From Candidatus Woesearchaeota archaeon (GTDB taxonomy: Archaea; Nanobdellota; Nanobdellia; Woesearchaeales; DSVV01): a stretch of DNA of 64,000 nucleotides. The DNA is taken from contig JABHXF010000009.1 in assembly GCA_018657385.1 (NCBI GenBank), forward strand, positions 2,554-66,553, in the 5' to 3' direction. The notes under the pieces are model-generated. The model was not told where the DNA came from. It saw nothing but the letters and a program-made list of their open reading frames with translations, and did not search any database. Of this stretch, positions 12,109 to 55,408 are shown piece by piece; the first letter of the stretch is position 1, and each line of letters begins with the position of its first letter. Both the position numbers and the translations under genes were made by a program.

Positions 12109-12158
12109 GACTTTACAAAGAGTAGGTATATTGAGTGGGTTAAAAAAGGGTGTATTTA

Positions 12159-16190: not shown

Positions 16191-16192
16191 AA

Positions 16193-16852: not shown

Positions 16853-16894
16853 AAAATTAAAAAATAATTCCAATTAAGAGTAAATATTTCAAAA

Positions 16895-17782: not shown

Positions 17783-17839
17783 AATTGTCATATTAAAGTT
17801 CATATAATATTAATAAAAACAAAAAAAGAGGAGATTACA

Positions 17840-20227: not shown

Positions 20228-20337
20228 GAATTTAATTATATTATAATCATTAAATTAGATTATAATAATTATTAAAATAATTAATATAATTTTAAGATGA
20301 TGGGTATAGAATGTAAAATAATAGATACAGAATAAAA

Positions 20338-26878: not shown

Positions 26879-26891
26879 CTTAATATATATT

Positions 26892-26930: not shown

Positions 26931-26936
26931 TTAAAA

Positions 26937-26974: not shown

Positions 26975-27074
26975 ACTGAGAATTAAAAAAAATTACAAGA
27001 ATAAGGCCCTAGCAGTGATGATTTCTCTATTAATTAAAACAAAGAATATCTAAAATTATCAAAATAAAAATGTC

Positions 27075-27695: not shown

Positions 27696-27878
27696 TGATT
27701 TTTAATTATCTATTTTTATCATTTCACCAATCTCTACTTTACAATAAAAACAACATATAAACACACATAAAGTTATGAAAAGGATTATATATTAGCTAAT
27801 CTAGTACCTAGATATAATACAATTTGGCACATGTTAAGCTTTTCAAGTTTAACAATTCAAAAAGTGGAGGTAAATAAA

Positions 27879-28203: not shown

Positions 28204-29757
28204 ATGAGATTTAGGTGGCAAGAAGTATCTACATTGATTAGTTCTGCAGTACTTGGTGCAGCTGGTATGTTTACAGCAGGTGCTATTGGTTGTTTTGGTG
28301 AAAATGCACAAACCACAATAATTGATTATATTTCTCCTGAAACTGCAAATATTGAAACAATACCAGATAAAACAGCAGAAACATTAACATCTAAAGTTGA
28401 TAAACAAATACATGATGCTGCCATAGATACTGGAAATAGAGACAATACCCCACAAAACCCAAGTGATATTGAAAAAGTAATAATAGAAAATCCAAATAAT
28501 CTAAGCACACAAGATGATAGTAATTTAACCAAACATATTAATTATAAGCATAATAATGTGGTTATTCCATTTACTGGTTTATTAGAAAATAAATACTTTG
28601 AAAATTTTCTTATTAATTCTGGAATCTATAAATCCATGCTTAATATGCATATATCCCAATTATTAGAATCAATCCCAGCAGAGTTATTACCAAGAGAACA
28701 TACTAACAAATATTTTGAAAAGTTCTTTGAAGCATATTACAAAGAGATTAGAAAAAAAAGAAGAGAAATGGGTGTAGTAAGAGATTTTTTCTGCAGAGTT
28801 TATGATGAAAAAGCAGCAGCAATATGTAATAATTTTGAAGATCGTGCTTTATTTTTCCCTCAGCAATTATTTGTTATTGATAAATCTGAATTTAAAGCTT
28901 ATTATTTTGATTTTTCTACTGAAATTGATCTAAGCAAAATAATTGTAAGTGTTGATGGAAGAAGAACAGCATATGATATAATTGAAGAACCAGGAGAAAT
29001 AGTAGTTAAAACAAAATCATATAAAACCAGAGCAAAAGCAAGACCAACATTAGATGAAATAATTGATGGAAATGATCATGAAGTTAGTGTAATAGGAGTA
29101 AAAGAAGTTCAGAAACAATATTCAACTACCTTTGCTCATGATAATCTAATGATTTACTTTGATGATAATATGAATCCTGTTGCTTATTCAAAAGATGCTG
29201 GTAAAACACAAAAACTTTACAATTCAAAAAGATCTGAAAAAATTGCGAGAGCAATTAAAAAAGCTTTCTTAAAAAGAAAACAACAAAATGAAGATTCAGA
29301 AGGGACAATAGTTGCCCCTGAAATGATATATTCAGTTGCAATTGGTGAAGATGAATATAATCATTCAAAAAAAAATAAAACATCAATTACACCAAATGGA
29401 ATATTGTGGGTAGATAAGATGGAATTTAGCCCAACTGAATACTATAGAGCTTATTATGAAATGTTTTACAAAGATAATCCTAAAAAATATGAAGAGAAAA
29501 AAGATGCAGGTAAAAAATATGGACCTAGATTAATATCATTTAACGGACCACTTGAATTCCATGATTTAATTGCATTTCATGGAACTGCTCCAAATGTGCA
29601 ATGGAGTGTTGGTAAAGCAGAATCATGGGGATGCTTAAGAATGTATAATAACGAAAGAAACAGTAAAAGAGAAGGAGATCATATCCTAGATTTATTTGAC
29701 AGATTAATTAGTACAAAATATAAAGGTCTTGGTGTGCCAGTTGTTATTGTACCTTAA
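28204..29757 (+). CDS. lipoprotein-like protein with a C-terminal L,D-transpeptidase (YkuD)-like domain
   Basis: N-terminal hydrophobic segment ending AGAIGC (lipobox-like). C-terminal FHGTAPNVQWSVGKAESWGCLRMYNNE matches the H-G-x(n)-S-x-G-C-(I/L)-R-M catalytic signature of YkuD. Confidence 0.6.
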   Translation: MRFRWQEVSTLISSAVLGAAGMFTAGAIGCFGENAQTTIIDYISPETANIETIPDKTAETLTSKVDKQIHDAAIDTGNRDNTPQNPSDIEKVIIENPNNLSTQDDSNLTKHINYKHNNVVIPFTGLLENKYFENFLINSGIYKSMLNMHISQLLESIPAELLPREHTNKYFEKFFEAYYKEIRKKRREMGVVRDFFCRVYDEKAAAICNNFEDRALFFPQQLFVIDKSEFKAYYFDFSTEIDLSKIIVSVDGRRTAYDIIEEPGEIVVKTKSYKTRAKARPTLDEIIDGNDHEVSVIGVKEVQKQYSTTFAHDNLMIYFDDNMNPVAYSKDAGKTQKLYNSKRSEKIARAIKKAFLKRKQQNEDSEGTIVAPEMIYSVAIGEDEYNHSKKNKTSITPNGILWVDKMEFSPTEYYRAYYEMFYKDNPKKYEEKKDAGKKYGPRLISFNGPLEFHDLIAFHGTAPNVQWSVGKAESWGCLRMYNNERNSKREGDHILDLFDRLISTKYKGLGVPVVIVP

Positions 29758-32700
29758 CTACCATCTTTCTTATACACATATGCACCCTTTCTTGTGCCTT
29801 CTTCGATATCAGAAATATAAGCAATTTCTTTTCCAGATCTTCCTGTTAATAACCCATTTAAAACAATAGTTGCAGAATCCCCACTAATACTTCTCTCAGT
29901 AGTAATTGTGTTCACACCCCTACCTAAACCCCTTAATTTTGAACCTGTTCTTCTTTCACTCATACAACCAGATATACTAACCAAGGCAGGTTTCTGATCA
30001 TTGTTTAATTTTTTAATAGCTGGATAATTCCAAGGTCTAAATACACCTCTTTTGATACCTTCTTCATCTGTGCTAAAACTAAACCCAGAATATCTTCCAC
30101 CATATGTATGTGAACTTGTATGGAATACATCATAACCACCTTTTGCAAATTCATTAGCAGCATCTTGAGCAGTATATACTACAGTCATTTCAACTTCAAC
30201 ATCACTGCCATCTTTTGTTTTGTATTTTTTAGGTGAAGATCGTTTTATTTTTCTGTCATCAGCTAAAACACCATTGCTGTCATAAGTCATGGGAACAATC
30301 CTACCACCACTTTGTTTTTCTCGTGAAGCACCAGGTGCATATAATATTCTTATTTTACCATCATCCACCATATTCTCAAAATCAGGATGTAATTCTATGT
30401 AACCACCTTGTTCTTTAATTAAATCAGGGTTAACAAAAGCATCTACAAAATCAAGATCTGTTGATGGTGATATTGTTGGACCTATAAGTTTTTCTACTGA
30501 ATCTTCACCAGATATAAGTGCTTTTCTTGAAGGAAAATCAAAATATCTTCTATATAAATTATATTCACTTTCTGAAACTCTTTCACTAGGGTAAATAGAT
30601 TTGTCCTGTCTAAATGTTATTGGGAATGTTACTTCTTTTTCTTTATCAGGATCAACTGCAACAACTTTTTCTAATTTGCTTGTAGGTCCAGTATCACCTT
30701 TTGGTTTGTCTTCAAAAGATTTTTTAATAAGTTCCAAAGGGGCTTCTTGTTTTCCATTAGATGCTTCTGCAAATTTAATACTAGTATGTTTGTATAGTTC
30801 TCTCCCTTTTCTAACATTAGTATCACCAAAAATATCTGAAATAATTTCTCCTTTCTCAAACTTAATCTTAACCTCTGCATCAGTTGACTTACCTTCTACA
30901 ACTATTCTACCTTGAGAAGAGCTAAGAATCGCATTTAATGATTCTTGTCCAAAAAAACCATCAACACCAATTTTATTCCCATCTAAAACTTGTGTTTCCT
31001 GCCAGTCTTTAACTTTTGCAGATGTTTGTTTATCATAAACTCCTGTTTGTTTAGAACCAACAACTTTTTGTATATTAAGAATATCATTATATTTTCTTGA
31101 ACCTTTTGATGCTTTATCTCCAGGACTAAAATAACCTCTGCTTGGAAAATCCATAAAGTCCTTTACATTTCTGCCTAATGCTTTTTCATGCTGTACATAC
31201 GCCCCTGGAGACATACTTGTTTTAACATTTTTACCATGAGTTATAATTCCATCTTTTGTAAATCCAACATATTCAGAAGTTGAATAAAGTGGCTTTTTCA
31301 TGATTTTTTCTTGGTTAGGAAAAAATAATCGTGTTGCAAATTTATTATGGGGTGTTATTTCAACACCATTAACAGATAAAGTTTTTTCATCTGATTTACC
31401 AGAATAAAGATATAATCTTCTGGATGAACTAACATCATCATAATCATCAACAATAAATTCTCCTTCTAAATAAATTCCCTTCCTTCCCCTATATGGATCA
31501 GGTCCATAACTTTTTACTTTAGTAATTCCTTTGTTGTCTGTAGTGTAATATTCATAGCCACCTATTGTTGTAGCTTTTACTTTTTTAATTTTTGCACCAT
31601 GACCTTCAATTATAGGCGCGACTCTGTGTACTCTAGTTGCCCCACCAGATTGAATATTATAAGCAGTTGCATATTTATCATGCACTGTAATGATTGGAGG
31701 GACCCTTACCTTTTTACCAGCAATATCTACTTTCTCCCTCTCAAACTCGATTCCTTCAACTTCCCCAATTCTTCCAGTAAAAGAAGATGGTCCAACTTCA
31801 ATATCTCTTGCATCCCTTACATTAATTTCTCTTATTTTTCCTTTTTTAATAGAAATTCTACCATTATCACCATTAATTTTAATATCTCCTTCCAAAGGAA
31901 TTGCTTTTCTCAGGTCTTCTTCAACTATTTTTTTAGATTCTGCAAATTCATCTCCTACACTTTCTAATGTTTCTTCTTCAATTGTTAAAGCTTGAACTAT
32001 TTCATTATCACCATAAGCACCTACAAAATCATTCCAACCTTTACCTAAACCAGCCAAAGCTTTTTTAGCCACTTCCTTCTCTTTTGCTGTTTTAAAAACT
32101 TCTATTTCTTTTTCTTTTTTATATTTCAATATTAACTTAAGTTTCCCATTACTAGTAACTTCCATTGCATACTTATCTTTTGCACTACCTTTTTTTAAAT
32201 CATAAACATTAATTGTAGATCCTTTGCACTTTAACTTACCATCTGATGAGAAAGAGATAATATTACCACTAATTGCATTAACATCAACACCTTCTGCCCG
32301 AAGATATTTTGAAAAAATAATTTTCCCCTGTATATCATTATTAATATATTTCCCATTGTTCTTTATTAAATATTTCTTTGTTATTGCCCTATCCTTTGAT
32401 GTTAGTGGATGTAATGTTAAAAGATGTGATGCAAGTATTTCCCTATCATTTAAATCATTAAAATTTACATCATTAAGATATTTTCTTGCAACTTTATGAT
32501 TATCACCAGAGATACTAAGTGGAAGCATAAACCCTCTGAGATATTTTTTCATCAATACTCTGTCGGGGTTTTTTGTTTCTAAAAAATAATTCTTTGCACC
32601 TTCTGGATAAAAAAGCATTTTATTTGGATTGGCTTTAAAATAACTATAAGCTATTTGTGGCCTTGTTTTTAAAAATTCATCACCTAATGTAGTAATTGTA

Positions 32701-32885
32701 TATTCTGGATCAAATGAATAAGCCAAATCAGGATCAGTAAAGATTAAGTCTGGAACATCAGCAATACTACAATCAGGCGGACAACCAGGATTTAAAGCTA
32801 AAGCATTGAAAGAAAATAGAATTAAAACTATTAAACTAATAAGTGTAAATATTAAAATTGAATATTTATTTATTTTTGAATTCAT
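29754..32885 (-). CDS. 1043-aa secreted protein with a PG_binding_1-like repeat and a possible C-terminal caspase-like (clan CD) His/Cys module
   Basis: Signal peptide. GVYDKQTSAKVKDWQETQVLDGNKIGVDGFFGQESLNAI resembles peptidoglycan-binding domain 1. C-terminal DVFHTSSHTYGG ... ALVSISGCMSE resembles a His-Gly / Cys dyad. Confidence 0.6.
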   Translation of the reverse strand: MNSKINKYSILIFTLISLIVLILFSFNALALNPGCPPDCSIADVPDLIFTDPDLAYSFDPEYTITTLGDEFLKTRPQIAYSYFKANPNKMLFYPEGAKNYFLETKNPDRVLMKKYLRGFMLPLSISGDNHKVARKYLNDVNFNDLNDREILASHLLTLHPLTSKDRAITKKYLIKNNGKYINNDIQGKIIFSKYLRAEGVDVNAISGNIISFSSDGKLKCKGSTINVYDLKKGSAKDKYAMEVTSNGKLKLILKYKKEKEIEVFKTAKEKEVAKKALAGLGKGWNDFVGAYGDNEIVQALTIEEETLESVGDEFAESKKIVEEDLRKAIPLEGDIKINGDNGRISIKKGKIREINVRDARDIEVGPSSFTGRIGEVEGIEFEREKVDIAGKKVRVPPIITVHDKYATAYNIQSGGATRVHRVAPIIEGHGAKIKKVKATTIGGYEYYTTDNKGITKVKSYGPDPYRGRKGIYLEGEFIVDDYDDVSSSRRLYLYSGKSDEKTLSVNGVEITPHNKFATRLFFPNQEKIMKKPLYSTSEYVGFTKDGIITHGKNVKTSMSPGAYVQHEKALGRNVKDFMDFPSRGYFSPGDKASKGSRKYNDILNIQKVVGSKQTGVYDKQTSAKVKDWQETQVLDGNKIGVDGFFGQESLNAILSSSQGRIVVEGKSTDAEVKIKFEKGEIISDIFGDTNVRKGRELYKHTSIKFAEASNGKQEAPLELIKKSFEDKPKGDTGPTSKLEKVVAVDPDKEKEVTFPITFRQDKSIYPSERVSESEYNLYRRYFDFPSRKALISGEDSVEKLIGPTISPSTDLDFVDAFVNPDLIKEQGGYIELHPDFENMVDDGKIRILYAPGASREKQSGGRIVPMTYDSNGVLADDRKIKRSSPKKYKTKDGSDVEVEMTVVYTAQDAANEFAKGGYDVFHTSSHTYGGRYSGFSFSTDEEGIKRGVFRPWNYPAIKKLNNDQKPALVSISGCMSERRTGSKLRGLGRGVNTITTERSISGDSATIVLNGLLTGRSGKEIAYISDIEEGTRKGAYVYKKDGS

Positions 32886-32947
32886 TTTTTATGTGTCAAT
32901 TTCTTTTATTTTATGTATTAATTAAATTTTTGTTTTAATTTTAATCC

Positions 32948-34411
32948 TTACTCTAATTCTTTATATGCTTCTTCCTCTACAAACAAAGTCATTTCTTGTT
33001 CACCAACATAACCATTTTGGTCTACAACAGTAATCCTGATTGTATGTTCCCCAATGTTTTCTTCAACAGGAATAAAACCAATTATCCCTGTTTTTTCATC
33101 AATATTAAATAAATCAGTATCATCGTAATAAGTAAATATAGTTTCTTCTGCTTCAGTTATTTCTCCAAGCTCTTCATCTGAATTAACTCCAGCAATAACT
33201 TGATAACTATATACATCCCCAATATATGCTGTTTGATAATCAATATATTCAATAGTTGGCTCATTAAATGATTTAACAACGTCTAACATCATTTTTTCTG
33301 CTCTCATTTCTTCATCTTCACTAACAATACCAATTGTAACTATATAACTTCCAATGTCAGTTTCAGCAGGTGTAAATTGTATTAATCCTGTTAGTTCATC
33401 AATTTCAAATAATTCAGTATTATCATAATATCCTTTGATATTACCAACAGCCTCTACTTGATAGCTATACAAATAACCTGCTTCTGTTACCTGCTTTGGG
33501 ATTGGCAATAAATCTAATGCATCTTCTTTATACTCATCTTCAATATCAAAGAAATGTACAAACATAAAAGTTACGTTATCTCCACCATATTCTTCCTTTG
33601 TGAAAAAATAAAGAATTTGTGAAGTATGGTCAGGAACAGGATCAAGACCAATAAAATTACCTTCTTCATCAGATTCATGGAATACAATGCCATAATCCTC
33701 AACTTCTGCTGTTTTTACTACAATATCATATATTTCTGTTAAATCCCTAATACAACTTAAACAGATAAGATTATCATTTGCTGCTTGATATTCTGAATAT
33801 TCTTTTGCAGCTTGATATAGTTCAGGATAAATAGATTGTACCTCAGTTTCAAATAAACTCCATGTCTTAATTGTTTCTCCAATTTTAACTTCAATTGGAT
33901 AAATCATCTTAACAATAATATTGTCTTCATACATTTCTGAATTAACTTCCAATTGTAATGGCTGAGCTGTAACCTCATAATTTAAATTTGAAAAATCTAA
34001 ACAATCTAAAACAAATGATTTAATCCTTAATGAAAGCTGTTTTTGAAGCTCATCTTTTGTTGGAATAACAGATTCAGAATCATAAACATAAAAAGGAATA
34101 TTAAAAAATGTACTATCGCCAAGATCATTAGTAACTGTAAAAGGCATTGATATTAAACCACCATCTTGATTTGTTCTTACTTCCTTGAATCCACCTTGAA
34201 CAGAATTCCATATGATTGCTTCTTTTGTTGCTTGCTCCATACATGATGTGACATAATTATATATTGGCTTTAGTTCATTAGGAACATCTTGTATTTTTGT
34301 AACCCGAACTCCTTGAGTAAGATAATTTTGAAAATAAATACCTAAACTAAATAAAATTAAGAAAACCATACCTATTATGATGAATAATGTAATTGCGCCT
34401 CTTTTATTCAT
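32948..34411 (-). CDS. family A protein (A3, 487 aa): prepilin/TadG-like N-terminus plus two cadherin-like (He_PIG-type) Ig repeats
   Basis: MNKRGAITLFIIIGMVFLILFSLGIYF. Conserved block P-x5-V-x2-C-x8-EAI-x4-(V/G)-x2-GG(Y/F), here PIYNYVTSCMEQATKEAIIWNSVQGGF. Repeats YSYQV-x(n)-LF-x-ID-x-TG-x-I-x-F-x-P. Confidence 0.7.
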   Translation of the reverse strand: MNKRGAITLFIIIGMVFLILFSLGIYFQNYLTQGVRVTKIQDVPNELKPIYNYVTSCMEQATKEAIIWNSVQGGFKEVRTNQDGGLISMPFTVTNDLGDSTFFNIPFYVYDSESVIPTKDELQKQLSLRIKSFVLDCLDFSNLNYEVTAQPLQLEVNSEMYEDNIIVKMIYPIEVKIGETIKTWSLFETEVQSIYPELYQAAKEYSEYQAANDNLICLSCIRDLTEIYDIVVKTAEVEDYGIVFHESDEEGNFIGLDPVPDHTSQILYFFTKEEYGGDNVTFMFVHFFDIEDEYKEDALDLLPIPKQVTEAGYLYSYQVEAVGNIKGYYDNTELFEIDELTGLIQFTPAETDIGSYIVTIGIVSEDEEMRAEKMMLDVVKSFNEPTIEYIDYQTAYIGDVYSYQVIAGVNSDEELGEITEAEETIFTYYDDTDLFNIDEKTGIIGFIPVEENIGEHTIRITVVDQNGYVGEQEMTLFVEEEAYKELE

Positions 34412-34496
34412 ATATATTAATTATTATATAATATGTTTATATAGTTTTTGGTAGATATATATACATATTTTCTTTTTTATACATTATTGGTGATTT

Positions 34497-34592
34497 AAAT
34501 CCAACAACATTGGCCGGACGAGCCGATAGGCGAGTAGGATTTTTCGAACAGAGTGAGAAAAGTCCGTCCGTGTCATTGTTGTTGTTGGATTT
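34497..34592 (+). repeat. structured repeat family 1, copy C
   Basis: AAATCCAACAACATTGGCC-GGAC-GAGCC-GAUA-GGCGA-GUA-GGAUUUUUC...GAAAAGUCC-GUCCGUGUCATTGTTGTTGTTGGATTT. Confidence 0.75.
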
Positions 34593-34615
34593 GTTATTGA
34601 CATACTAAGAAAATA

Positions 34616-34658
34616 AAAACCTTCAATAGAAACATGTCCTCCGGACCTAGTAAAAAAA
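34616..34658 (-). terminator. family F2 downstream motif after 34674..35441
   Basis: In mRNA sense: TTTTTTTACTAGGTCCGGAGGACATGTTTCTATTGAAGGTT, about 15 nt after the stop. Confidence 0.45.
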
Positions 34659-34673
34659 GAAAAATTAAGAATA

Positions 34674-35441
34674 TTATAATGCTTTATTAAAAACAAGACC
34701 TAAATATCTCTTTGCCCAACTGAAATATATTATAAATACAAGAAGATTAATGAACATTCTAACATTAAAAGGAATAAAATTCATGTATATTGCAATCTGT
34801 GATAATAAGAATAGAACAACTAAAGTAAGAGCAGTAATTATTATATAGGGCAATATGAACAAATAAATCTTTTTGAAAGTTACCTTAAAGAAACTTTTTA
34901 ATTTACCCAATACGAATAATGCATTAGCACTATGAGTTATATAAATTATCGCTGGCAATATGACAAGAACAAAGAACCATGCTTGAATTTTAGCAACCAC
35001 ATAATTCGCTGTAATTGCAAAGAATAATATAAATAATAACATTAAACAAAAATTCAATATACTTAAGTATAAAACTTTTTTAAAATCTAATTTTTTATTG
35101 AATATCTTAGCCCAAATTAAGCCCTTGAAAAAACTGAAATTTGCTAATAACAATATAAATATTAAAGCAGTGAAGATCCCAAAAACATATAGTGATGATT
35201 TAATTTGTTGGCCCATAACCATTAATGCTTCTAAAGGTAAGTTTTGCATACCCTCGACAAAACTATTTGTTTGGAATAAAAAAGTTGCTTCAGGTAAAAT
35301 ATATTTAATAAAAATTGCTAATGAGAAAATAAAGATAAAATAGTAAATTAAATCATATACAACTGTAAATAAATATTGCGGTAAATTCTTTTTTCTAAAG
35401 CAATCTAAGCTTTTAATGAATAATGAATTTTTTATGTGCAT
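34674..35441 (-). CDS. polytopic membrane protein, family D (D2)
   Basis: Six or so hydrophobic helices, with motifs shared with 16895..17782. Confidence 0.65.
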   Translation of the reverse strand: MHIKNSLFIKSLDCFRKKNLPQYLFTVVYDLIYYFIFIFSLAIFIKYILPEATFLFQTNSFVEGMQNLPLEALMVMGQQIKSSLYVFGIFTALIFILLLANFSFFKGLIWAKIFNKKLDFKKVLYLSILNFCLMLLFILFFAITANYVVAKIQAWFFVLVILPAIIYITHSANALFVLGKLKSFFKVTFKKIYLFILPYIIITALTLVVLFLLSQIAIYMNFIPFNVRMFINLLVFIIYFSWAKRYLGLVFNKAL

Positions 35442-35571
35442 GTTTAATATCCCCTGTTTATTCTTTGTAAAGTTTTATGTGTTTATATATTTAATGGGTT
35501 TTGAAGGTTAGGATGGTATGGAATGTTTAGATGGTAAAGAACCTTCCTTACCTTCCAAACTCCAAACCTTC

Positions 35572-37899: not shown

Positions 37900-38081
37900 T
37901 AATTAACCCCTTTTATTCACTCTTTTTATTATAATAATACTATATTAAACCAAAATTAATTGATTTTTATTTATTATTCATTTATAGATAAATCTATCTA
38001 TATCAAACATTCTGTAGAAATTGATTTATAAATTTTATTATAGATATATGCAATAATATGATTTTTTATTAATATATGAAT

Positions 38082-38169
38082 AAAAAACAACAACCAAGGC
38101 ACAGACGGACTTTCTTCGAAAGTCCTATTCGCCTCGCTTTGCTCGTCTCATCTGGCCATGTTGTTTTTT
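38082..38169 (-). repeat. structured repeat family 1, copy D
   Basis: The reverse complement reads AAAAAACAACAUGGCCAGAUGAGACGAGCAAAGCGAGGCGAAUAGGACUUUC-GAA-GAAAGUCCGUCUGUGCCUUGGUUGUUGUUUUUU. Confidence 0.75.
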
Positions 38170-38197
38170 GTAGATCTAAAAAATTTAATTGATTCAA

Positions 38198-41100
38198 TTA
38201 ACAGCCATAATCGCCTTCATCAGTGATTACAAACTCATCTCCACCTAATTGAGTGCAAATAGGTGCAGTATATTTTTCTTTTTGTGAATCTGTCCAAGTA
38301 TCCACGTCCATGATTTTCAAACAAACATAATCAAACCTACATTCTGTATCAATTTCATCACATATAAAAGTTGTTTCATCACCAGCATAATGTGTTCTAT
38401 GAACACCCTTAGGATTATTCACAACAAACTCATCATTCCAACCAATTTGTCCAGTTGCTTTGCTTTCAAAAGATTTTTCAGAATCACATTTATTATAAAG
38501 ATAAACAATACCATGCAGTGCCCCAATTGTTTGAAGACTAAATGAATATCTATAAATTCCTTCATCAACGATTTCTCGTTCACCACCAATTGTTGCAATT
38601 ATCTCTCCTTCATCCAAATATCCTAAATTAAAACCAAAATTATGTTCTTGTGTTATAGTTAGTCCTGAAATTACATCAGTTTCACTACTTCCAGTATTAT
38701 AATAATCCATAGTACAAACAGAATCATACAACCAATATTCCATTTTATTGAAAAAGTTTCCTGTCCAATCATCCAACAAAGTTCCAAACACACTTTCTAC
38801 TCTAGATCTAAATTCAAAGTTTAATGTATCATAAACTTTATCCATTCTTTTTTGTGCTCCTGGACAATTTGGTCCTTTATAACTATTTTTATCACAATCT
38901 TCAATCATTTTTTCAATTGAATCAACTGGATTTGTTGCACATGCTTTTTCTCCTTGATATGTTGTACAAAAAGTATCACCATCATAATCATGTTTACATC
39001 CTGTTAATTTATCACATTTAACAGCTGAACAACCAGAATTAGGATTTGATGCTTCTGCTGCTGAACAAGGAACTTTTTTACCTTTTTCTTCTTTCACGTA
39101 TACAAAACCTTCTGTTCCTTGGAAAACACTATCATGTTTAAACATAAATGAAGCTTTAGTAGGATCACACTCCTCTACTTTAGCGTCGCAAACAGCCAAA
39201 TCACCATTACTATCTAAGCCAGCAATATTTTCAGGTGGTTTGTATTCTTTTTTAGCTTTTGCTGCTGCTTCAGCTTCTGCTTTTTTCTTTGCTTCTTCTT
39301 CTGCTTTTTTCTTTTTTTCTTCTTCAGCTTTCTTTTTCTCTTCTTCAGCTTTTTTCTTTTCTGCAGCTTCTTTTGCTTTTTCTTCTTCTGTTTTTTCTTT
39401 TCCTTCTTTCTTTTCTTCTTCAGCTTTTGCTTCTACTTCTTTAGCTTTTGCTGCTGCTTCTTTTTCTGCCTTTGCTTTTGCTTCATTCTCTTCTTTAACT
39501 TTTTCATCAATAACTTCTTCTTTCAATGCTTTTGCTTGTGGTCCTAATTCACCATCTTTATATTTAATTAATTTTGTTTTATCTTTTTCTGTATAACCAA
39601 CAGGATCACCTTTAGCATCATAATAAATTGTTTCTCCTGTTTTTTTATTTTTAAAAGCTTTAGTATGTTCTCCTGCATCAACAACTTCATAAGTTCCTTT
39701 ACTTGTTGTTATAATTTGTCCAGAAGTAAATGAAGCAGTCCATGGAGTTACTGGAATTATTGGAGTTGGTGAAACACCACCAGGCATTGTTCCTGATTTT
39801 TGTTTTAATTCCTGTTTCTTTTTCTGTTCCTCAACTAATTCTTTTGCTCCCTCTAGAACATCATTTCTTTCATTAAAATTCTGAACATCTTCTTGAGCTA
39901 ATTTTGTTAAGAATGCAAGATTCATATCATCCTCTTCAATTGTATCAACTAAATCATCAAAATGATCATCTAAACCTTTACATAGTTTTGGATCACACTC
40001 TGTGTATGTAACTTGATCTTTATTAACACCTGCCTGAAAAGAATCAACTATACCTACAACTTTTCCTTTATTGTTAATAACAACATATTGGTTATCTATT
40101 TTAGTATTACCAAAATATAAGGATTCACCAGATTTTGGATTAGAACTAAATTTTTGATAAGTACTGCCACCATAAATTATATCCCCTAACTGAGGCGAAT
40201 TAGGATAATAAACCATTTCAACTCTTTCATCTCCTTTACCAACACCAACTTTTACTTTTCTGACATTACCATCTTCGTCAAATGTTAGTGTTCTTGCATT
40301 ATCAAAACTTTCAATATTTTTTTGTGAGCCAGTAAAACCACCCCAATTATTAGGATTAACTTCACCATCTCCTTCAGATAATATTGTCAATTCTGTTTCT
40401 CCTTCATTATTCTCAGAAAATTCATAAACATGTTCATCAGTATCCCAACCAGCAATTGCAACATAACATCTTTTTCCTTTACAAACGAAACCATCATCTT
40501 CAAAACTTCTACCTTGCATATCTTGAGAAATTCTTCCGTAAAGCAAAGCAATTTCTTTTTCTGATAATTTAGAATCTTTAAAAGCAGTTTCATAAACTCT
40601 TTGTGGAATTTCAACTTCATTCCCCCCTATATCTGTATATTTATAATGGGTTATTCCATCATCATCTACATGTGTTCTAATATATTTTCCAGACACCTCT
40701 GAACCTAATCCTTTTGACGAAGAACCAAGTCTAAGTTTATAGTTACTATGACCTAATTTCAAAGAATCTTTGTCTAGATAAGCTTTAACATCCCTCTGGA
40801 TTAAGTCTAAAACAGCTCCAATTTGTTCTTTTGCAGATTCACATTTATCAGGAAATTGTGTACAATCTAGAGAACCAACAGATTTAATAACTCCAAAATT
40901 ATCTACTACAACTTCTTTGTCTTCCCCATCAATTTCTACTTTACCTTTCCATCTACCTTGAGTTCCATCACCTACAAATTCAAAGTTTCTTCCATCAGTA
41001 TCTTTAATATTTCTTTTCCCTGTTAGAGGGGAATAAGATGCAATTAATCCATTATTCATTTTAATTTCATATTCATCTAAAGCAGTGCCTGTTTTGAATT

Positions 41101-44596: not shown

Positions 44597-44693
44597 TCAA
44601 CTCACTCTATATAATAAAGCTTGTAAGGCTAGTAGGGCTTGTAAGGCAAATTTGCCTCAATCCTTTCAAGCTCCAAACCATCCTAACTTCTTA

Positions 44694-47600
44694 TTAATCA
44701 TACTCTGGAATAGTCCCATACTCTTTTGCTTGATCACTAAATTCTTTATCTACTTCATCATCATCATCACTACTACCGCCCCAATCAAAGGCATCATCCA
44801 TCTCTTCATATAGCTGTTTAACATTTGTAATTAAGTCTAATATACTTAAAACACCAACAATGAAGTTTCTTACCCTTACTCCACCACAACTTAATCTTTG
44901 TGCCTTAGTTACTCCTGTACAACCAATTTCAAATGCTCTTGTCACTAATGATGAAACAAGTTTAGTAGCATATTGTTTTAATAAATCAGGTAAAATATGC
45001 ATGAATTGACCAAATGTTAACATACAAAATATTCTCCAACCCATATTAGGACAATCTTCAATATCTTCCCCTAATAAATAAGCTTTATTGTAACAAGTAT
45101 TTTGCGCAACTAATATTCTCTTAACCATTTCTAATGTTCTAATAATCGTAGGAACACAAGGTGGCCAACATATCAAAGCTACCCAAAAGTTTTTATGAGG
45201 ATCAAATGGGAACCTTATTTGCGAACTTCCAGTCCAATATTCAGCAGGATCAATTGGATTTCCTGAAACTTCATTAAGTGTTGCAGGATCAATACCTTTT
45301 TTACCAAACAGTGAATATGTTAATTGATCTGGTGTCCATTCATCAATATTCCATTTTCCACCAGTAATTTTACTATTCCAAACACTACTACATTCTGAAC
45401 ATAATGTTAGATCACAAATAAAACCTAAACTTAAAGCATTTTTACTGTTCCATTGGTTTTTCATATTACCTACTTCACCAACATCAGCTGGATCACCATC
45501 TTTACCATACCAAATCTTAGTCAACAAATCAACTCCTAACTTACACTCATGAGCTGCTGCTGTAGCAGGTGAAAATGCTGCTGTAAAACCTTCATAGATC
45601 ATACAAATATTATTCCATATTTGCATTACAAGATTAATCATCTTACAATATGGTGCAATATATTCAACATATTTTAAGACATCAATAATAGTATTTAATG
45701 TATCAATGGTATCTTTATATTCTAAAACCTTATCTAATGTACTATCAGCTGGATTGCTAAATATTTCTTTTCCCAATGGAACTTCTAAAGAAAATACAAG
45801 AACTTCATTAGGTGAATAAGCTTTTTTACCAGCATAAGAACTTTGAATAATTTCAGCTTTACATGCAATTGTTAATGGCTCAGGTGTTTCATCATAATCT
45901 TTTTCAGTAGCTGCTTTTAATTCTGCTTCTGTTGCCTCAAACTGGGGTATTGCAAGCATTACTTCTTTTTGTTCTCTACTTTGTAATAAACTATCAGTCA
46001 TATAAGTTTGAGAAATAATTGCTGCTGGCTTAATATCTTCAGCAGTAAAAGCTTCTCCCCTTGCAACTGTACATTCACCAATATTAATATCATGAACAAA
46101 TGACCCTGAAATTTTCCTATATTCTGATAAGTCAAGTTCCATCCTAAAAAAGGTTTGAGTTGACATGTGCAAAAAGTTTCTATTTAATTCATAGCCATAA
46201 TCATAAATGTCTGTAATATCTAATTCAAATTCATCTTCGAAAAAATCAACATTACCCTCAACAAGGTCATAAATTTTAAATTTGTCAGTATTATCCTCAT
46301 TAGTGTTGCCTGCTGCATCTGTTGCTTGTAAATTAAAAAAGTATGTGCCTGCAATTGGCACTGTAGGAAGCTCCCATGTACATAAATAAAGATATTCTCT
46401 GTAAGGGAAATTTCTATATTTATCATCTATGCCTTCTACTAATGCTGGTTCAACTAAATCACAACTTGTAGCAGGAGTTGGAGTTGGCCAATGCTCTTCA
46501 ATATTTAATTGTGCAAAAACCTTTGAAGGATCTAAAATACTACCATACTCCATAACATATGCATTAATTACTATTATTTCTTCAGGTGAAGTTGTAATTA
46601 TTTGCCCAGCTTTTGTTGAGCCACCACCATAGGCTTGTCCTGCTGTATCAGCTTCTGCTGCTGAATCTTCTGGAGTAAAACCAGGAGCTGGTTCTTGTAT
46701 TGGTGCCTCATCACTTGGAGTAAAACCAACTGCTTGCCCACCTAATGCACCTGCAGAAGTAACATCCATTAAAATAATTTCAGGAGCAAGGTTATCAAAT
46801 ATTAAATCTTGCTCTAATGATTCTGAATATTCTGTAGAAACTTTGTTTCCTGCAATATCAGCTGTATCAAAATGAACTCTTGCTTTTTGCTTAACATAAT
46901 ATAGTCCTGTTAATGGATCTCCTTTTGGATTTTCTTGAGCAAGCTTACTAGGATTAATATTTTTCCAAACACATGAAAATAATCCAGAATCACCAGAACT
47001 ACAATTATATGCTTTTTTCTTTGCTTCTCCTGTAACATCTTTTAAGTCAAGGAAAACATCATTTGCATCTAACCCAGAGCCAATCTCAATAAAATCAACA
47101 TAAATAACATTTTTATTTGTGTCGTTAAGATAAAGAATAGTTTTATCAGTATAAATTGCTCCAACTTCAGGTGGTTTATCATCAATATTAACTGAAAGTG
47201 TAAAATCACCTTCTGCTTTGTTTTCATCTATATCTGAAACAGAAACTTTTGCAGATAAACCTTCAGGATTATTTAACTTAATTCCATTCCAAACAAATTC
47301 ATAAATAGTTATAGTATTATCTTCACCTTCACCAACATCACCTAAATCAAGTTCATAAGTTTTAAAGGAAGAAGGTTTTTTGTTTTCATAACTTGTTTCT
47401 GAAGGGTTTAAGCCTAAGAAATCTGCTGTAACATCACTTGTACTAAGAAGATTATCATCTGAAATATTTAAATAAAGATCTACTTGAGGTATTTCATCCT
47501 TTATTATATAATTTAGTGGCAGTCCATTTTTCTTTGCAGTTAAATCACCCATAAAAATTGGAGCAGTTAAATCTAAATTAATTGGTTTACATTTTTCATC

Positions 47601-48458: not shown

Positions 48459-48462
48459 AATC

Positions 48463-50733
48463 TCATTCCTTTGTTACAATTGGTTTTATTTCATTATAAT
48501 TAAGCCCTGAACATGCATCTCTATGCCCTAGAGCTCCGAAATATTGTTTAATTTTTTGAGGTTTTCCCTCGTCAAACACATAAAAAGTAATGGTATTTCC
48601 TTCTGCTAAATCATCTTCATTTAACGATGTGATATAAATTGCACCACCATTCATTATAGATTCAACTTCTATTTCTTCATCAGGATAATAAATATCTTTG
48701 TCATCTGTAAATAAAGTTCCTTCAATATGAATTTTTTCAGATTCAGCTTTAATATCCATTTCCCCACCATATTTTTCATTTCTTACAAGCAAAATATCAA
48801 CTTGGTATGTTCCTGGACCAACATTGATTTCAGAAACATTTTTTGGATTGTAAAAAGTAAAGGTATAAGGGTTTGAAGGAGATAATGTTGGATCAACTTT
48901 TCTCATTGTAATAATTGCTTCTTCATTTGCATCTAATTGTCCAGGTGGTGTGTATAAATTACATTCTGTAACACTACCTGCATCATCTAAAACAATACCT
49001 TGTTTTGGATTTAATCCTGCTAATTTTGCCTGAGTAATTTCATCTTTTTCAAGAGAAGGAATTACATAATATTTTTTAACATCAACTTTTAATTTTGTTA
49101 ATGGTGTCATTTCTAATAATGTTGTAAACAATTTGCCAGGAACAACATCACCAATTAAAATTGCTTCATCACTATATCCTATTTTTTCTGTTGTAACAAT
49201 ACTACCACCAATACATGGAGGGAATTTTGAAACTAGCTTTCCAGAAGCATCTGTTTTCCCTATAAAACATTTTGAACTAAAAGGAGTACTATTAATTAAT
49301 GTGCCATTTTCATCATATTCTTCAACAAAAGCTGGCCCACATTGGAAATTAACCATTGCATCTGCAATTGGTTCAGAAGTTACTTGATTAATTACATTAA
49401 CAACACTTTCTTCGCTTGTTCTTTGATCAATATCACACAAATAAGATTCTCTTTCTGCCCCCTCTAGTGAAAATACATCACCTAAAGAAACTCTAGGGAA
49501 ATTTGATTTTGTAACAGCCATTAAAGGAAATTGAAATACATAAGGTTGGTTGTTAATATTTGATCCTGAATCAATTAAAGTTGTTAGAACTGGAAATTTA
49601 TATGAATAAGCATATTTGTAAACAAACACACATTTTCTTCCAAATAAATAATTAAAATCAACTTGTGTAGTTGGTTTAATCATTCCCCTTTGTCCTAAAT
49701 CTAATTCTAATGGAAATCCTGGTCGATATTCAAATAAAACATTTATATCAGGTTGAGAAACTCCTTCAATTTGATGACTCATCATATCAAAAATACCTTG
49801 CATTGTATCTCTTTTTTCTTGATCTTTCTGATCATCTTTTGAGACAACTAATCTTTCAAAATCACTATCTCTAATTTTTAAATAAGGCATATTTAAATTT
49901 AGAATTTGTTTAAATGATGATATAACATCATCTTCCATCCAATAAACTAATTCACTACAATCTTCTACTTGCATACCCCCAAATAATGGTGGTAGGTAAT
50001 CAGAATTAACTCTACTAAACATTGTAATAAGATTCATTGTATTTTGTTCAATAAATGCTGTTTTTTGTTCGTAACTTGCAATATCTTTTGCATAATTGTA
50101 TATCTTTTTGAAATCAACATTAATGTTAGCTCCAAAACTGTCTAAAGTTCTGGATTCATCTACTCCTTTAATTTCTAAAGGATAATAGATTGTAATAACT
50201 ACATCCTCGTCTGTAAAAATAACTGTGGGATCCATTTCACCTTTAACACTTACAACAGTTCCTTTCTCTGCAAAAGAATTATAATCATTTAAACAAAGAA
50301 TTAATTCCTGTTTAATGTATCTTTCTAATTGATCTTGTATAGAATCATCCCCAATAGATGTTTTTTCTAGTCTTGGCATTTCAGTTCTGTCTAAACCTGC
50401 CTGTTTTTGATAAAACCAATATGGAGCTGCTTGATAATCACTTATTTTTAAAATAGGAGAATTAAATGGTGCAATATCTGCGGTTTCAACTGGATAATCA
50501 TCAAGATAAATATAACCACCTTGTTGACCTAGTCTAATTAAACCTTGTTCAGCTACTTCACCCAAACATTGTTGAGTATATGCAATTATAGGATCTGATG
50601 AACCTGTTTGAAAAACATCATCTTTTGTCACCACACCTGTGATGTAAACAACACCTACAATCGCTAGAATTAGAATAAGTCCAATAATAATAAACGTTGT
50701 AGTTTGACCTAATTTATCCTCTTTTTTAAACAT
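48463..50733 (-). CDS. family A protein (A2, 756 aa): prepilin/TadG-like N-terminus and a CarboxypepD_reg-like segment
   Basis: MFKKEDKLGQTTTFIIIGLILILAIVGVVYI; conserved C-x8-(E)-x5-G-x2-GGY block; CFIGKTDASGKLVSKFPPCIGGSIVTTEKIGY. The stop lies 4 nt before the B2 start. Confidence 0.75.
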   Translation of the reverse strand: MFKKEDKLGQTTTFIIIGLILILAIVGVVYITGVVTKDDVFQTGSSDPIIAYTQQCLGEVAEQGLIRLGQQGGYIYLDDYPVETADIAPFNSPILKISDYQAAPYWFYQKQAGLDRTEMPRLEKTSIGDDSIQDQLERYIKQELILCLNDYNSFAEKGTVVSVKGEMDPTVIFTDEDVVITIYYPLEIKGVDESRTLDSFGANINVDFKKIYNYAKDIASYEQKTAFIEQNTMNLITMFSRVNSDYLPPLFGGMQVEDCSELVYWMEDDVISSFKQILNLNMPYLKIRDSDFERLVVSKDDQKDQEKRDTMQGIFDMMSHQIEGVSQPDINVLFEYRPGFPLELDLGQRGMIKPTTQVDFNYLFGRKCVFVYKYAYSYKFPVLTTLIDSGSNINNQPYVFQFPLMAVTKSNFPRVSLGDVFSLEGAERESYLCDIDQRTSEESVVNVINQVTSEPIADAMVNFQCGPAFVEEYDENGTLINSTPFSSKCFIGKTDASGKLVSKFPPCIGGSIVTTEKIGYSDEAILIGDVVPGKLFTTLLEMTPLTKLKVDVKKYYVIPSLEKDEITQAKLAGLNPKQGIVLDDAGSVTECNLYTPPGQLDANEEAIITMRKVDPTLSPSNPYTFTFYNPKNVSEINVGPGTYQVDILLVRNEKYGGEMDIKAESEKIHIEGTLFTDDKDIYYPDEEIEVESIMNGGAIYITSLNEDDLAEGNTITFYVFDEGKPQKIKQYFGALGHRDACSGLNYNEIKPIVTKE

Positions 50734-50825
50734 CCTAACACCTTTTTTTTATTTGAAATTATAATAATAAATAATACACTACACCCATCACTATATTTAT
50801 TTATATTATATTCTTTAAGTATTAG

Positions 50826-50841
50826 TATATAAACCTTTTGG
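50826..50841 (-). promoter_or_regulatory. BRE/TATA-like promoter of locus 2 (CCAAAAGGTTTATATA on the minus strand)
   Basis: Identical 16-mer to 12092..12107. Lies 93 nt upstream of ATG 50733, which is preceded by AGGTG. Confidence 0.55.
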
Positions 50842-50972
50842 TGTGTAAATTTAATGATATAGTAGGTAAATCACCATGTTTTTTAATAAAAATGGCGAAA
50901 TACCTCATGAAAATAGCCTATCGGCAAGCTAAAAAAAGGACAATATATCATCAAAAAGTAGTGAATTTGGGC

Positions 50973-50986
50973 AAAAGCTTTATATA
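50973..50986 (+). promoter_or_regulatory. BRE/TATA-like promoter (AAAAGCTTTATATA) for 51013..53865
   Basis: The TATA-like box ends 27 nt before ATG 51013, consistent with a leaderless transcript. Confidence 0.5.
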
Positions 50987-51012
50987 TTGTTTTGATATTC
51001 TTTATATATATA

Positions 51013-55391: not shown

Positions 55392-55408
55392 TATGGAGGG
55401 AAAACAAA

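Follow-up and report, generated by a model that had tools for sequence, protein, structure and literature searches.

We analysed a 64,000-nucleotide stretch of DNA (the window) in which seven minus-strand open reading frames form one cluster, locus 2 (Table 1). The coordinates, strand and lengths given for these genes by the first-pass annotation were reproduced, as was the 4 nt gap between A2 and B2; the remaining gaps measure 62–298 nt. All cassette products are extracytoplasmic or membrane proteins, and the GC content of the locus equals that of the genome. Genes for an ATPase, secretin, prepilin peptidase or sortase had been noted as missing, and no such domain was found in the window ORFs or in the 10 kb past either edge. 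Of the type IV filament (TFF) machinery, neither the ATPase nor a platform protein nor the prepilin peptidase lies in these regions or, as far as Pfam annotates them, in the flanks of related loci.

The gaps had been described as mostly containing repeats, which held for four of the six, where hairpin-forming inverted repeats occur (fold z = -2.1 to -5.0). Two of these four hairpins are copies of a dispersed palindromic repeat family of ~90 nt, with related copies at ~6.9, 26.8–27.0, 27.7 and 63.95 kb of the window; the D2/A3 copy lies in the opposite orientation to the C2/C1 copy. Each gap hairpin is followed by an AT-rich TATA-like stretch, which suggests several transcription units. Since the gaps contain both elements, a single promoter for all seven genes, as initially proposed, is doubtful.

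Table 1 Features of locus 2 and locus 1 (positions in the window; a slash marks the signal cleavage site).
Feature	Position	Strand	Basis or remark
A2, 756 aa, first-position A-type protein	48463..50733	-	ORF
A2 class III (prepilin-type) signal, aa 1-34	50632..50733	-	K-L-G/Q-T-T-T-F-I-I-I-G, then hydrophobic helix
B2, 1254 aa	44694..48458	-	ORF
B2 C-terminal all-helical Cys-rich module, ~aa 903-1254	44697..45752	-	AF2
C2, 2132 aa	38198..44596	-	ORF
C2 E/K-rich (~60%) spacer directly before head	39197..39529	-	Low-complexity repeat at DNA level
C2 head, conserved Cys-rich C-terminal module	38201..39100	-	Family alignment
C1, 775 aa, tandem paralog of C2	35572..37899	-	ORF; head 35575-36474
D2, 255 aa, 5-6-TM membrane protein	34674..35441	-	TM prediction
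A3, 487 aa, second-position A' protein	32948..34411	-	ORF; A-family paralogy
X, 1043 aa, lineage-specific tail gene, N-terminal TM/signal	29754..32885	-	ORF
Upstream AT-rich region (24% GC), TATA-like boxes, candidate promoter	50734..50991	-	Shared with divergent gene
Divergent gene	50992-53865		Shares upstream region with A2
B2/C2 intergenic hairpin	44597..44693	-	RNA fold -21.1 kcal/mol, z = -2.1
C2/C1 intergenic palindromic repeat copy (~90-nt family)	38080..38180	-	Fold z = -3.1
C1/D2 intergenic hairpin	35480..35571	-	Fold -28.5 kcal/mol, z = -4.2
D2/A3 intergenic palindromic repeat copy	34470..34590	-	Fold z = -5.0; alignment
Locus 1	12150..22521	+	
B1	12150-16190	+	
Orphan	16193-16852	+	
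D1	16895-17782	+	
A1	17840-20227	+	
Membrane protein	20338-22521	+	

The A-type proteins A1, A2 and A3 are paralogous, as proposed (BLASTP 6e-24, 1e-7 and 4e-9). In A2 the class III-type signal and the TM helix are followed by a novel α/β domain of ~360 aa and, C-terminally, by β-sandwich domains of CnaB/transthyretin-like type; the 43 homologs of A2 are all "hypothetical" proteins of Woesearchaeota/Nanobdellota. The AF2 model of A2 (pLDDT 83) returned only local β-sandwich matches in Foldseek (TMq ~0.1). Because a low-confidence loop parts the N-terminal helix from the globular part, a canonical pilin fold is not demonstrated for A2. The prepilin-like N-terminus suggested for the A-type proteins is borne out by a class III-type motif, [KR][KR][GAS]-Q-[VI]-T-x-F-I-I-I-G-L, sharply conserved across A and A' (~45 proteins), with Gln at +1 of the signal and near-invariant Q10 and G18. 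The Pfam Tad profile PF13400 aligned to A N-termini in register from the cleavage site in three of ten sequences, below threshold (13–18 bits; cut-off 22.3), and none of the curated pilin or class III signal models scored above threshold on A/A' proteins. A3 carries the signal K-R-G/A-I-T-L-F-I-I-I-G, a shortened A N-domain and two Ig-like repeats of ~100 aa each, and its gene has DNA repeats at 300-nt spacing; the Ig-like repeats had been called cadherin-like, but they matched only He_PIG, below threshold (E=0.004). A3 sits on a long branch of the A tree, in which the A and A' clades mirror each other in species topology, and A and A' are ancient paralogs.

B2 begins with a Sec signal peptide (..AYA/D), followed by an array of weak bacterial-Ig-like domains and a β-sandwich; a helical tail rich in disulfides comes next, then an acidic linker whose final residues are G-x-x-P-x-Y. 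Both the linker and the terminal peptide are conserved. A Sec signal is present in B and in F. Big_13/Big_3_3 matches occur in part of the B family, whose alignment holds ~19 invariant Cys. B1 and B2 are paralogous over the N-terminal ~400 aa (1e-9; B-family profile against B1, 6e-100). The B2 tail is Cys-rich, as first described, but its hydrophobicity remains under the TM threshold. Its AF2 model (pLDDT 75) shows long helical hairpins and had no match in structure searches (best PDB E=0.014, best BFVD E=5e-3). Among 1.84 billion representatives the tail occurs in only 45 clusters, always at the C-terminus of 1000–1200-aa proteins.

From its N-terminal TM/signal anchor, C2 extends through a long GNSTQ-rich stalk, in which C-x4-8-C loops recur periodically, to an E/K spacer and finally a Cys-rich head; a close relative has an ortholog of 2110 aa. 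A TolA-like NCBIfam match falls on the E/K-rich spacer and is spurious. C1 joins a short acidic/coiled stalk to the same head, in agreement with the relationship claimed for the two C-terminal modules (63% identical, 2e-144). The head, with invariant C121, R176, Y177, N195, C197 and C290, had no Pfam or PDB match. Family C spans 362–2132 aa, the stalk varying 6-fold in length across species. C also has a TM segment together with a "TGMA" motif, and may be cut at the G-M-A site and shed instead of staying anchored. N-x-S/T sequons are scarce: one in C2 against 13.8 expected, none in C1 against 4.4, none in X against 6.4, and 19 against 69 across the cluster in the window. Family C in other species has 20 sequons against 80 expected, a 4-fold depletion, with the reversed motif, used as control, at expectation. 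Such avoidance indicates exposure to glycosylation machinery together with selection for naked surfaces.

D2 is polytopic, as stated, with 5–6 TM segments; its family has an invariant Asp (D30) inside TM1, and follows C in 13 other loci; none of its members matched Pfam or PDB. X occupies the slot that a giant fn3 protein takes elsewhere. It had been called PG-binding/caspase-like, which we did not recover: Pfam PG_binding_1 matches at E=0.055 over 20 residues, and PDB sequences gave no match. Homologs of X are absent from 29 loci, whereas an X-like protein (1024 aa) occupies the same position in a close relative; a C1-like protein (541 aa) adjoins D in a close relative. X is a lineage-specific tail gene confined to close relatives, not a core part.

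Comparison across species revealed complete A-B-C-D-A'-fn3 synteny in 10 distinct loci of other Woesearchaeota/Nanobdellota species (L001, L003, L011, L013, L014, L015, L017, L018, L021 and L022). This order replaces the B-C-D-A unit originally proposed. L005 keeps the gene order, but its C slot is filled by a non-homologous gene. A and B are adjacent in all 20 loci having downstream sequence, and the gaps in L003 (12, 14, 2, -4 and 5 nt) are consistent with an operon. Since order and tight packing are kept at only 20–40% identity between species, the cassette is a functional module and not a chance group of adhesins. The earlier proposal of a functional module of unrecognised families was supported, and STRENGTHENED. 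The A N-domain, B helical tail, C head and D were unrecognised by Pfam, NCBIfam, PHROGs, PDB sequences and Foldseek (PDB, BFVD), none mapping to a known system, and no core family corresponds to one already described. Genomes carry one cassette, sometimes two, among housekeeping genes that vary between species. We read locus 2 as one of the window's two copies of a vertically inherited cassette restricted to Woesearchaeota/Nanobdellota.

The second copy, locus 1, had been said to repeat the B-C-D-A order; B, D and A were recovered, whereas no resemblance of its supposed C gene (219 aa) to family C or another locus was detectable. B1 matches the B N-region profile (9e-49) and lacks the canonical B tail, D1 joins the D family at profile level only (hhalign 96%, E=1e-9), A1 falls in the L005/L025 variant clade of the A tree, and the last gene encodes an fn3/Cys-repeat membrane protein (fn3/Pur_ac_phosph_N). 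Locus 1 is a divergent variant in which the leading A, C module and canonical B tail are missing. In locus 1 and L005, B tail and C head are jointly absent or degenerate, which speaks for a B–C partnership, but these two loci may represent a single evolutionary event.

We compared the cassette to known surface systems. As in TFF pilins, A and A' open with a basic stretch and [GAS]/Q, have T conserved at +3 and continue into an unbroken hydrophobic helix; they share Gln at +1 with the archaeal pilin-like proteins of Epd/EppA type from Methanococcus. This "TFF system 1" is reported also in DPANN, and TFF systems have been reported from the lineage. Unlike the ~100–150-aa TFF pilins, A and A' have 490–800 aa with a novel globular domain, lack a nearby ATPase, platform protein or peptidase, and score below threshold with curated pilin models. 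With the bacterial Tad pseudopilins TadE/TadG the similarity lies in PF13400, a TadE/G-like N-terminus model that alone matched A N-termini repeatedly; TadG-type proteins, too, are large, but the match is sub-threshold (in the same three of ten sequences), tad genes are absent and the organism is an archaeon. The C-terminal half of A2 resembles the CnaB/transthyretin-like β-sandwich string of sortase-pilus adhesins (SpaC, RrgA, PitA and TIE; Foldseek E=1e-5 to 1e-3), matches that are local to domains given TM-scores of ~0.1; unlike these adhesins, A2 has no LPXTG signal, no sortase and an unmatched N-terminal domain. The predicted archaeal arCOG01314 secretion/remodelling system (Makarova et al. 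2015, PMC5898192) is, like the cassette, a context-predicted cluster combining secreted Ig-like and small membrane proteins, but none of its hallmarks (DUF4350/arCOG01314, MoxR AAA+ ATPase, secreted vWA protein, pfam07760 proteins) occurs here. The Sulfolobales bindosome consists of large sugar-binding proteins with class III signals, assembled by BasEF, and its cargo genes lie away from the TFF core genes (preprint 10.64898/2026.04.22.720090). Both systems have large globular surface proteins with pilin-type N-termini and no adjacent TFF core machinery; the cassette differs in lacking a substrate-binding-protein fold and a neighbouring ABC transporter, and adds four dedicated families (B, C, D and the tail giant).

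Woesearchaeota are tiny, probably symbiotic archaea, and DPANN archaea are metabolically dependent on hosts. The cassette is a strong candidate for the cell-contact machinery of Woesearchaeota, and its earlier reading as a host-attachment machine is plausible. We tentatively favour, at slightly less than an even chance, a surface contact complex that depends on TFF machinery encoded elsewhere. Prepilin peptidase would cleave A and A', and the distant TFF machinery would handle them as in the bindosome. Both proteins would be retained in, or lifted from, the membrane by way of the N-terminal helix and might dock on D. The tail of B would bind the C head, and the whole would form a protruding, partly unglycosylated adhesion complex that binds a partner cell or surface, with stalk length and the tail genes (X, fn3 giants) tuning reach and specificity. 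Assembly by genes elsewhere, which we infer, accords with the bindosome precedent, and DPANN possess TFF systems (10.64898/2026.04.22.720090). Woesearchaeota express archaellins (PMC11606122), and a class III peptidase should therefore exist in the lineage.

It is unlikely, though the best of the other explanations, that the cassette instead builds the cell's own S-layer-type wall, with B as lattice or canopy, C as membrane-anchored stalk and A, A' and D as anchoring parts. As in SlaA/SlaB, a large secreted protein, here rich in Ig domains, has a stalked partner anchored in the membrane, and the cassette's low copy number, vertical inheritance, housekeeping neighbours and rapid sequence divergence, typical for envelope proteins, would fit such a scaffold. 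Archaeal S-layer proteins are typically glycoproteins, unlike the sequon-depleted family C. Similarity to SlaA/SlaB in sequence or fold, or to any solved S-layer protein, is absent, and the anchor is N-terminal. The variable stalk, with two lengths coexisting in the present genome, is difficult to square with a constant envelope spacing. Moreover, S-layer genes of Woesearchaeota are annotated separately and highly expressed (PMC11606122).

Less probable again is a set of adhesins clustered for co-expression only, each acting alone and forming no multi-protein apparatus. The many adhesin-like domains (Ig, CnaB-like, fn3), the variable stalks and tail genes, and the hairpins and promoter-like stretches between genes of the present genome would all agree with independent products. 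Against it stand the strict order of overlapping or near-abutting genes at such low identity, the constant presence of a small polytopic membrane protein without adhesin features, the joint loss of B tail and C head, and the co-divergence of A and A'.

We give still lower probability to a device active on the partner membrane, in which a disulfide-locked B tail of long amphipathic hairpins on an unglycosylated C stalk, based on A, A' and D, would insert into or remodel the partner envelope as a translocon, fusion device or bridge to acquire metabolites. The unmatched helical bundle with long hairpins, the conserved linker and terminal peptide of B, and sequon avoidance by C are in keeping with it, as is the metabolic dependence of DPANN on hosts (PMC11606122). 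However, the tail helices are too weakly hydrophobic for TM prediction, the many invariant Cys point to an extracellular fold that is rigid and stable and not one that refolds, the tail is unlike known pore formers, fusogens or translocators, and the mechanism is purely speculative.

A remnant of a virus or mobile element with structural or entry proteins is very improbable: large, orphan, Cys-rich proteins, two divergent copies in one genome and palindromic repeats within the locus might recall one, but PHROGs gave no hits and IMG/VR, INPHARED phages and PLSDB plasmids no relatives, integrase, capsid and replication genes are absent, the housekeeping flanks differ between species, the GC content matches the genome, and the A and A' trees are mirrored, as expected under vertical descent.

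ORF calling reproduced exactly the coordinates and lengths that the first-pass annotation had assigned to the seven minus-strand genes of locus 2, transcribed in the order A2, B2, C2, C1, D2, A3 and X. By BLASTP, A2 is paralogous to A1 of the divergent second cassette, locus 1 (6e-24), and A3 is paralogous to both, while B1/B2 paralogy is limited to ~400 N-terminal residues and the C-terminal modules of C1 and C2 share 63% identity. Kinship of D1 and D2 is detected only via profiles (D-family HMM, 3e-6; hhalign 96%, E=1e-9). The B-C-D-A order that had been claimed for locus 1 as well holds for B, D and A; the 219-aa gene in the C position has no relative detectable anywhere by BLASTP or hhalign, so the recurrence is really B-?-D-A. 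The window has a GC content of 30% and is archaeal, encoding a PAC2 proteasome chaperone and a double Lrp/AsnC regulator, and its proteins have their nearest relatives in Candidatus Woesearchaeota/Nanobdellota MAGs. It also encodes a 108-nt tRNA (Rfam, 44 bits), missed by ARAGORN and presumably intron-containing, and the presumed intron fits an archaeal origin. With 21 kb for the cassette and 10 kb for the second copy, the two loci together fill about half of the 64 kb of the window, itself part of a small genome.

Positions of cassette genes, motifs, repeats and other features within the window
Feature	Position	Strand	Remark
A2	48463-50733	minus	ORF
B2	44694-48458	minus	ORF
C2	38198-44596	minus	ORF
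C1	35572-37899	minus	ORF
D2	34674-35441	minus	ORF
A3	32948-34411	minus	ORF
X	29754-32885	minus	ORF
Candidate docking peptide, B2	44697-44800		also in B orthologs of L001-L024, P0045-P0086
'TGMA' motif region, C1	37780-37899		also L001, L011, L013, L018, L022, others
'TGMA' motif region, C2	44470-44596		as for C1
Dispersed ~90-nt palindromic intergenic repeat	38080-38180, 34470-34590, 6895-6995, 26740-27000, 27640-27740, 63920-64000		MITE/REP-like, long hairpin
Locus-1 gene in the C position	16193-16852		219 aa
Locus-1 tail protein	20338-22521	plus
tRNA	23066-23173	plus
YkuD-domain protein	28204-29757	plus	517 aa
Region of the 957-aa protein	50992-54905
Cys-rich secreted cluster	55056-59012	plus
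vWA protein	56923-58059
Ser/Thr protein kinase	61421-62647	minus	also L031, 1-2735

Next, we explored related loci in other genomes. A2 has 43 homolog clusters, none of them annotated, and we examined the neighbourhoods of three distant homologs (27–39% identity) and of 23 loci from species-representative genomes; these 23 were mapped with iterated family HMMs, and the query of the genome scan was an alignment of 14 closer sequences. For B and the C head, a word-indexed search picked up almost nothing, just 3 matches each. Comparison of the loci reveals a canonical unit of A (~760 aa), B (~1050–1250), C (362–2132), D (~260–290), A' (~640–690) and a giant fn3-repeat protein (~2000), complete in 10 distinct loci (L001, L003, L011, L013, L014, L015, L017, L018, L021 and L022). 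B directly follows A in 20 of the 20 loci where the sequence continues, and L005 keeps the canonical order, its C slot being filled by a non-homologous gene. The genes flanking the cassette vary between species. In a neighbour-joining tree, first-position A and second-position A' proteins form separate clades whose species topologies mirror each other, which indicates an ancient duplication followed by vertical co-inheritance.

Locus 2 is the canonical unit with C duplicated (C2 and C1) and the lineage-specific X in the tail slot. The same layout is found on two contigs of a close relative, the first reading AsnC regulator, methyltransferase-like protein, A, B and a C2-like protein (2110 aa), the second C1-like, D, A3-like and X-like (1024 aa). 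Locus 1 is a divergent variant of the cassette, and A1 clusters with L005/L025 in the neighbour-joining tree. Beside locus 2, and transcribed divergently from A2, is a gene for a 957-aa protein with a single TM segment; its N-terminal half is weakly SAM-methyltransferase-like and its C-terminal half contains Cys. The double-HTH Lrp/AsnC regulator adjoins it; both stay next to the cassette in the close relative, where the methyltransferase-like neighbour has 1441 aa. The GenBank TPA MAG records for L011, L012, L013, L015, L018, L021, L022 and L025 are labelled 'uncultured Methanosarcinales archaeon'; they carry a Woesearchaeota-type cassette (A identity 32–39%) and the organism labels are probably wrong.

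The A and A' proteins share an N-terminal motif, [KR][KR][GAS]-Q-[VI]-T-x-F-I-I-I-G-L, conserved in ~45 sequences with Q10 and G18 near-invariant. At the level of pattern (a short basic n-region, G/A/S at -1 and an uninterrupted hydrophobic helix of ~20 residues), the N-terminus looks like a class III (prepilin-type) signal of archaea in which Gln occupies +1, and we take it to resemble that of the QxSxEF pilins cleaved by EppA. The 38 full-length A-family members have no Pfam match, and no curated pilin or class III model scored above threshold against full-length proteins or N-termini. With the N-termini alone, the sole match was PF13400 Tad (TadE/G-like), aligned in register in 3 of 10 sequences at 13–18 bits, under its cut-off of 22.3. 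The AF2 model of A2 (pLDDT 83) comprises a TM helix, an α/β domain of ~360 aa, probably bridged by a C56–C147 disulfide and carrying the conserved 'LGxQGGYI' motif, and a C-terminal string of β-sandwiches; its helices span residues 7–34 and, after a low-confidence loop, 48–70, leading into the α/β elements. Foldseek matches to A2 in the PDB include no pilin and are confined to sandwiches of the C-terminal half, which resemble CnaB/transthyretin-like domains of SpaC, PitA, RrgA and CnaB2; these are local matches (E=1e-5 to 2e-3, probability up to 1.0, TMq ~0.1).

Elsewhere, Pfam, NCBIfam and PHROGs gave nothing significant for any cassette protein, Pfam searches with every A, B, C-head and D member returned only sporadic Ig-like matches in B, and profile-versus-PDB sequence searches with A, B, C head, D and X returned nothing. 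Matches to TolA, PEP-carboxylase and MSC_0624 were discarded as compositional, arising from E/K-rich or hydrophobic stretches far under the cut-offs. B begins with a Sec signal and ~830 aa of weak Big_13/Big_3_3-type Ig-like domains, followed by a β-sandwich and an all-helical bundle of ~350 aa with long hairpins (AF2 pLDDT 75, predicted with homologs from an exhaustive HMMER search); ~19 cysteines are invariant in the family alignment. Foldseek of the tail model against PDB and BFVD found no structural match for the helical module, only generic β-sandwiches, and among 1.84 billion representative clusters just 45 contain the module, all with the same architecture. The C-terminus carries an acidic linker of 25–35 aa and, in most species, G-x-x-P-x-Y (EYGTIPEYD, QLGTTPTYG), a candidate docking peptide.

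C proteins start with a hydrophobic segment, followed in most members after 5–35 residues by [LTV]-[TAV]-G-[MLF]-[AS] ('TGMA'), which may be a signal-peptidase site or a processing or anchoring motif of another kind. A class III signal on C was dropped as its N-termini fit the pattern inconsistently. Stalk length varies widely; the C2 stalk is rich in GNSTQ, has C-x4-8-C loops at periodic intervals and includes a 60% E/K spacer, and the head is a Cys-rich region of ~280 aa. By hhalign, the C head is unrelated to the B tail, and the C-slot genes of locus 1 and L005 are unrelated to family C. D has 5–6 TM segments; an Asp in TM1 is invariant, and 'GLIW' is nearly so. Identification of D as a prepilin peptidase, sortase, rhomboid or CPBP protease was rejected because it has a single invariant acidic residue and no conserved Cys, His or Ser; it shows no conserved catalytic-looking residue set. 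Apart from an N-terminal anchor, nothing recognisable was seen in X. Its description as a PG-binding/caspase-like protein is unsupported: the PG_binding_1 match (E=0.055) covers 20 residues and scores 14 bits, short of the cut-off of 23, and for a caspase-like (clan CD) protein we found no peptidase family in Pfam or NCBIfam and no PDB relative. The locus-1 tail protein differs in architecture, combining two cytoplasmic RecX_HTH1-like repeats and a single TM segment with three 'NQDE.GIDCGG.C' Cys repeats and two fn3/Pur_ac_phosph_N domains; what it shares with the giant tail proteins found in other species is limited to the fn3 domain.

B1 retains the Ig-like region (9e-49) and lacks the canonical helical tail, and the B protein of L005 keeps only a fragment of the tail (2e-11). 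In precisely these two loci the C-slot gene is without a C head, a joint loss that is consistent with a B tail–C head partnership, with the caveat that two loci of one clade may count as a single event. A second signature came from N-x-S/T sequons, compared with per-protein shuffles and with the reversed motif [ST]-x-N as control. The 12 cluster proteins of the window hold 19 sequons against 69±8 expected (control 74 versus 68), including X (0 versus 6.4), B1 (2 versus 9.3) and the locus-1 fn3 protein (2 versus 7.4), whereas the other 21 window ORFs are at expectation (53 versus ~50). In other species avoidance is strong in family C only, with 20 sequons against 80±7 expected, a 4-fold depletion (control 80 versus 79); A/A' show it mildly, B and D not at all. 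This pattern implies that C meets the oligosaccharyltransferase yet is selected to stay unglycosylated, a state unusual among archaeal surface proteins, and a predicted lack of glycans argues against an S-layer role for C.

Stable hairpins occupy 4 of the 6 gaps in locus 2 (z = -2.1 to -5.0), each followed by an AT-rich TATA-like sequence. Those between C2 and C1 and between D2 and A3 are copies, in opposite orientations, of the dispersed repeat, whose consensus is ..AACAACATTGGCCAG.CGAG.CGA..AGGCGAGTAGGAT...AAAGTCCGTCTGTGCC.TTGTTGTTGTT.... Given the hairpins and TATA-like stretches, the cassette is probably divided into several transcription units in this genome. In other species it has the look of a single operon; the gaps between the L003 genes are 12, 14, 2, -4 and 5 nt, so that neighbours abut or overlap.

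Beyond export, topology and conservation, all that can be said of function is what we infer. We tentatively favour, at a little short of an even chance, a surface contact complex whose two pilin-like subunits rely on type IV filament (TFF) machinery encoded elsewhere. The 84 kb examined, made up of the window and its 10-kb extensions, contain no ATPase, platform protein or peptidase gene, and TFF ATPase and platform genes are also missing from the flanks of L001–L006 as annotated with Pfam. Their absence is not decisive, since bindosome cargo proteins are encoded apart from the core machinery, so that proximity to TFF genes is not obligatory, and DPANN are reported with TFF systems (both preprint 10.64898/2026.04.22.720090), and since Woesearchaeota express archaellins (PMC11606122).

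It is unlikely that the cassette encodes something categorically new, a hitherto unrecognised, self-contained organelle for cell-cell contact in Woesearchaeales. On that view D would be a dedicated membrane dock whose intramembrane Asp holds the processed A/A' N-termini, and on this D/A/A' base would stand a C stalk-and-head that is unglycosylated and disulfide-locked; its head would hold the B helical tail, so that the B Ig array and the tail giants are shown to the host, and assembly would proceed without canonical pilus ATPases. If true, this would be the attachment or bridge apparatus that has long been sought in a major DPANN lineage without cultivated members, and would comprise four protein folds missing from all structure libraries. 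Also unlikely is an envelope or S-layer scaffold, against which stand the sequon avoidance, the variable C stalk length and the separate annotation of S-layer genes (PMC11606122); even so, such a cassette would define how the cell surface of a major archaeal clade is built. Independent, co-regulated adhesins are a rather poor prospect in view of the strict gene order, the constant presence of D and the B tail/C head covariation. Poorer again, and speculative, is a partner-membrane-active device based on the B tail. That the cassette is the remnant of a mobile element is scarcely credible: a viral or plasmid origin is unsupported, with relatives absent from viral contigs, phages and plasmids and no matches in PHROGs.

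Among known systems, A/A' share their signal pattern with class III-signal surface proteins (Epd-type pilins), but neighbouring ATPase and platform genes, expected of TFF pilin-like proteins, are absent at the cassette. The hallmarks of the bindosome, an SBP fold and an adjacent ABC transporter, are found neither in the cassette nor in its neighbours. The DUF4350 anchored protein, MoxR-type AAA+ ATPase and secreted vWA protein of the arCOG01314 system, itself predicted from gene context (PMC5898192), are absent from the cassette proteins; the vWA protein of the window is part of a separate cluster. CnaB/CnaA-type β-sandwich stalk domains, as in sortase-assembled pilus adhesins, are present in the C-terminal half of A2, but the A, A' and B tails lack an LPXTG-type or PGF-CTERM signal, and no sortase or archaeosortase domain was found in the cassette proteins. 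TadG-like pseudopilins are among the nearest concepts, the A matches being sub-threshold, and the cassette has no PDB, Pfam or NCBIfam match to archaeal S-layer glycoproteins. With the signal pattern and generic β-sandwiches as the shared features, membership in the Epd-type pilins, bindosome, TadG or CnaB adhesins is not established. No description of the cassette was found in the literature searched. We regard the cassette as a pilin-signal-bearing archaeal surface system of four novel families.

Woesearchaeota, assumed to be host-attached, rank with the most abundant and diverse of the uncultivated archaea, and we know of no attachment machinery identified for them. The cassette offers a concrete target, being lineage-wide, vertically inherited and built of four families without sequence or structural relatives. 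It also provides handles in the putative prepilin-type cleavage motif, the predicted B tail–C head pairing, the intramembrane Asp of D and the sequon avoidance of C.

Convergent with X lies a gene whose product contains the catalytic domain of a YkuD L,D-transpeptidase (E=1.3e-7), here in an archaeon; the protein may act on the bacterial or pseudomurein wall of a partner. The Cys-rich secreted cluster starts with five small membrane-anchored ORFs (111–121 aa) of two alternating paralog types, followed by two Cys-rich proteins with MopE-type metal-binding motifs, one with a vWA domain, and is kept on related contigs. We considered the five small ORFs, at 55–57 kb, as pilins and dropped this in favour of Cys-rich anchored proteins. 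Near the end of the window is a eukaryotic-type Ser/Thr protein kinase gene, and three further kinase paralogs lie on the source contig just past the window edge.
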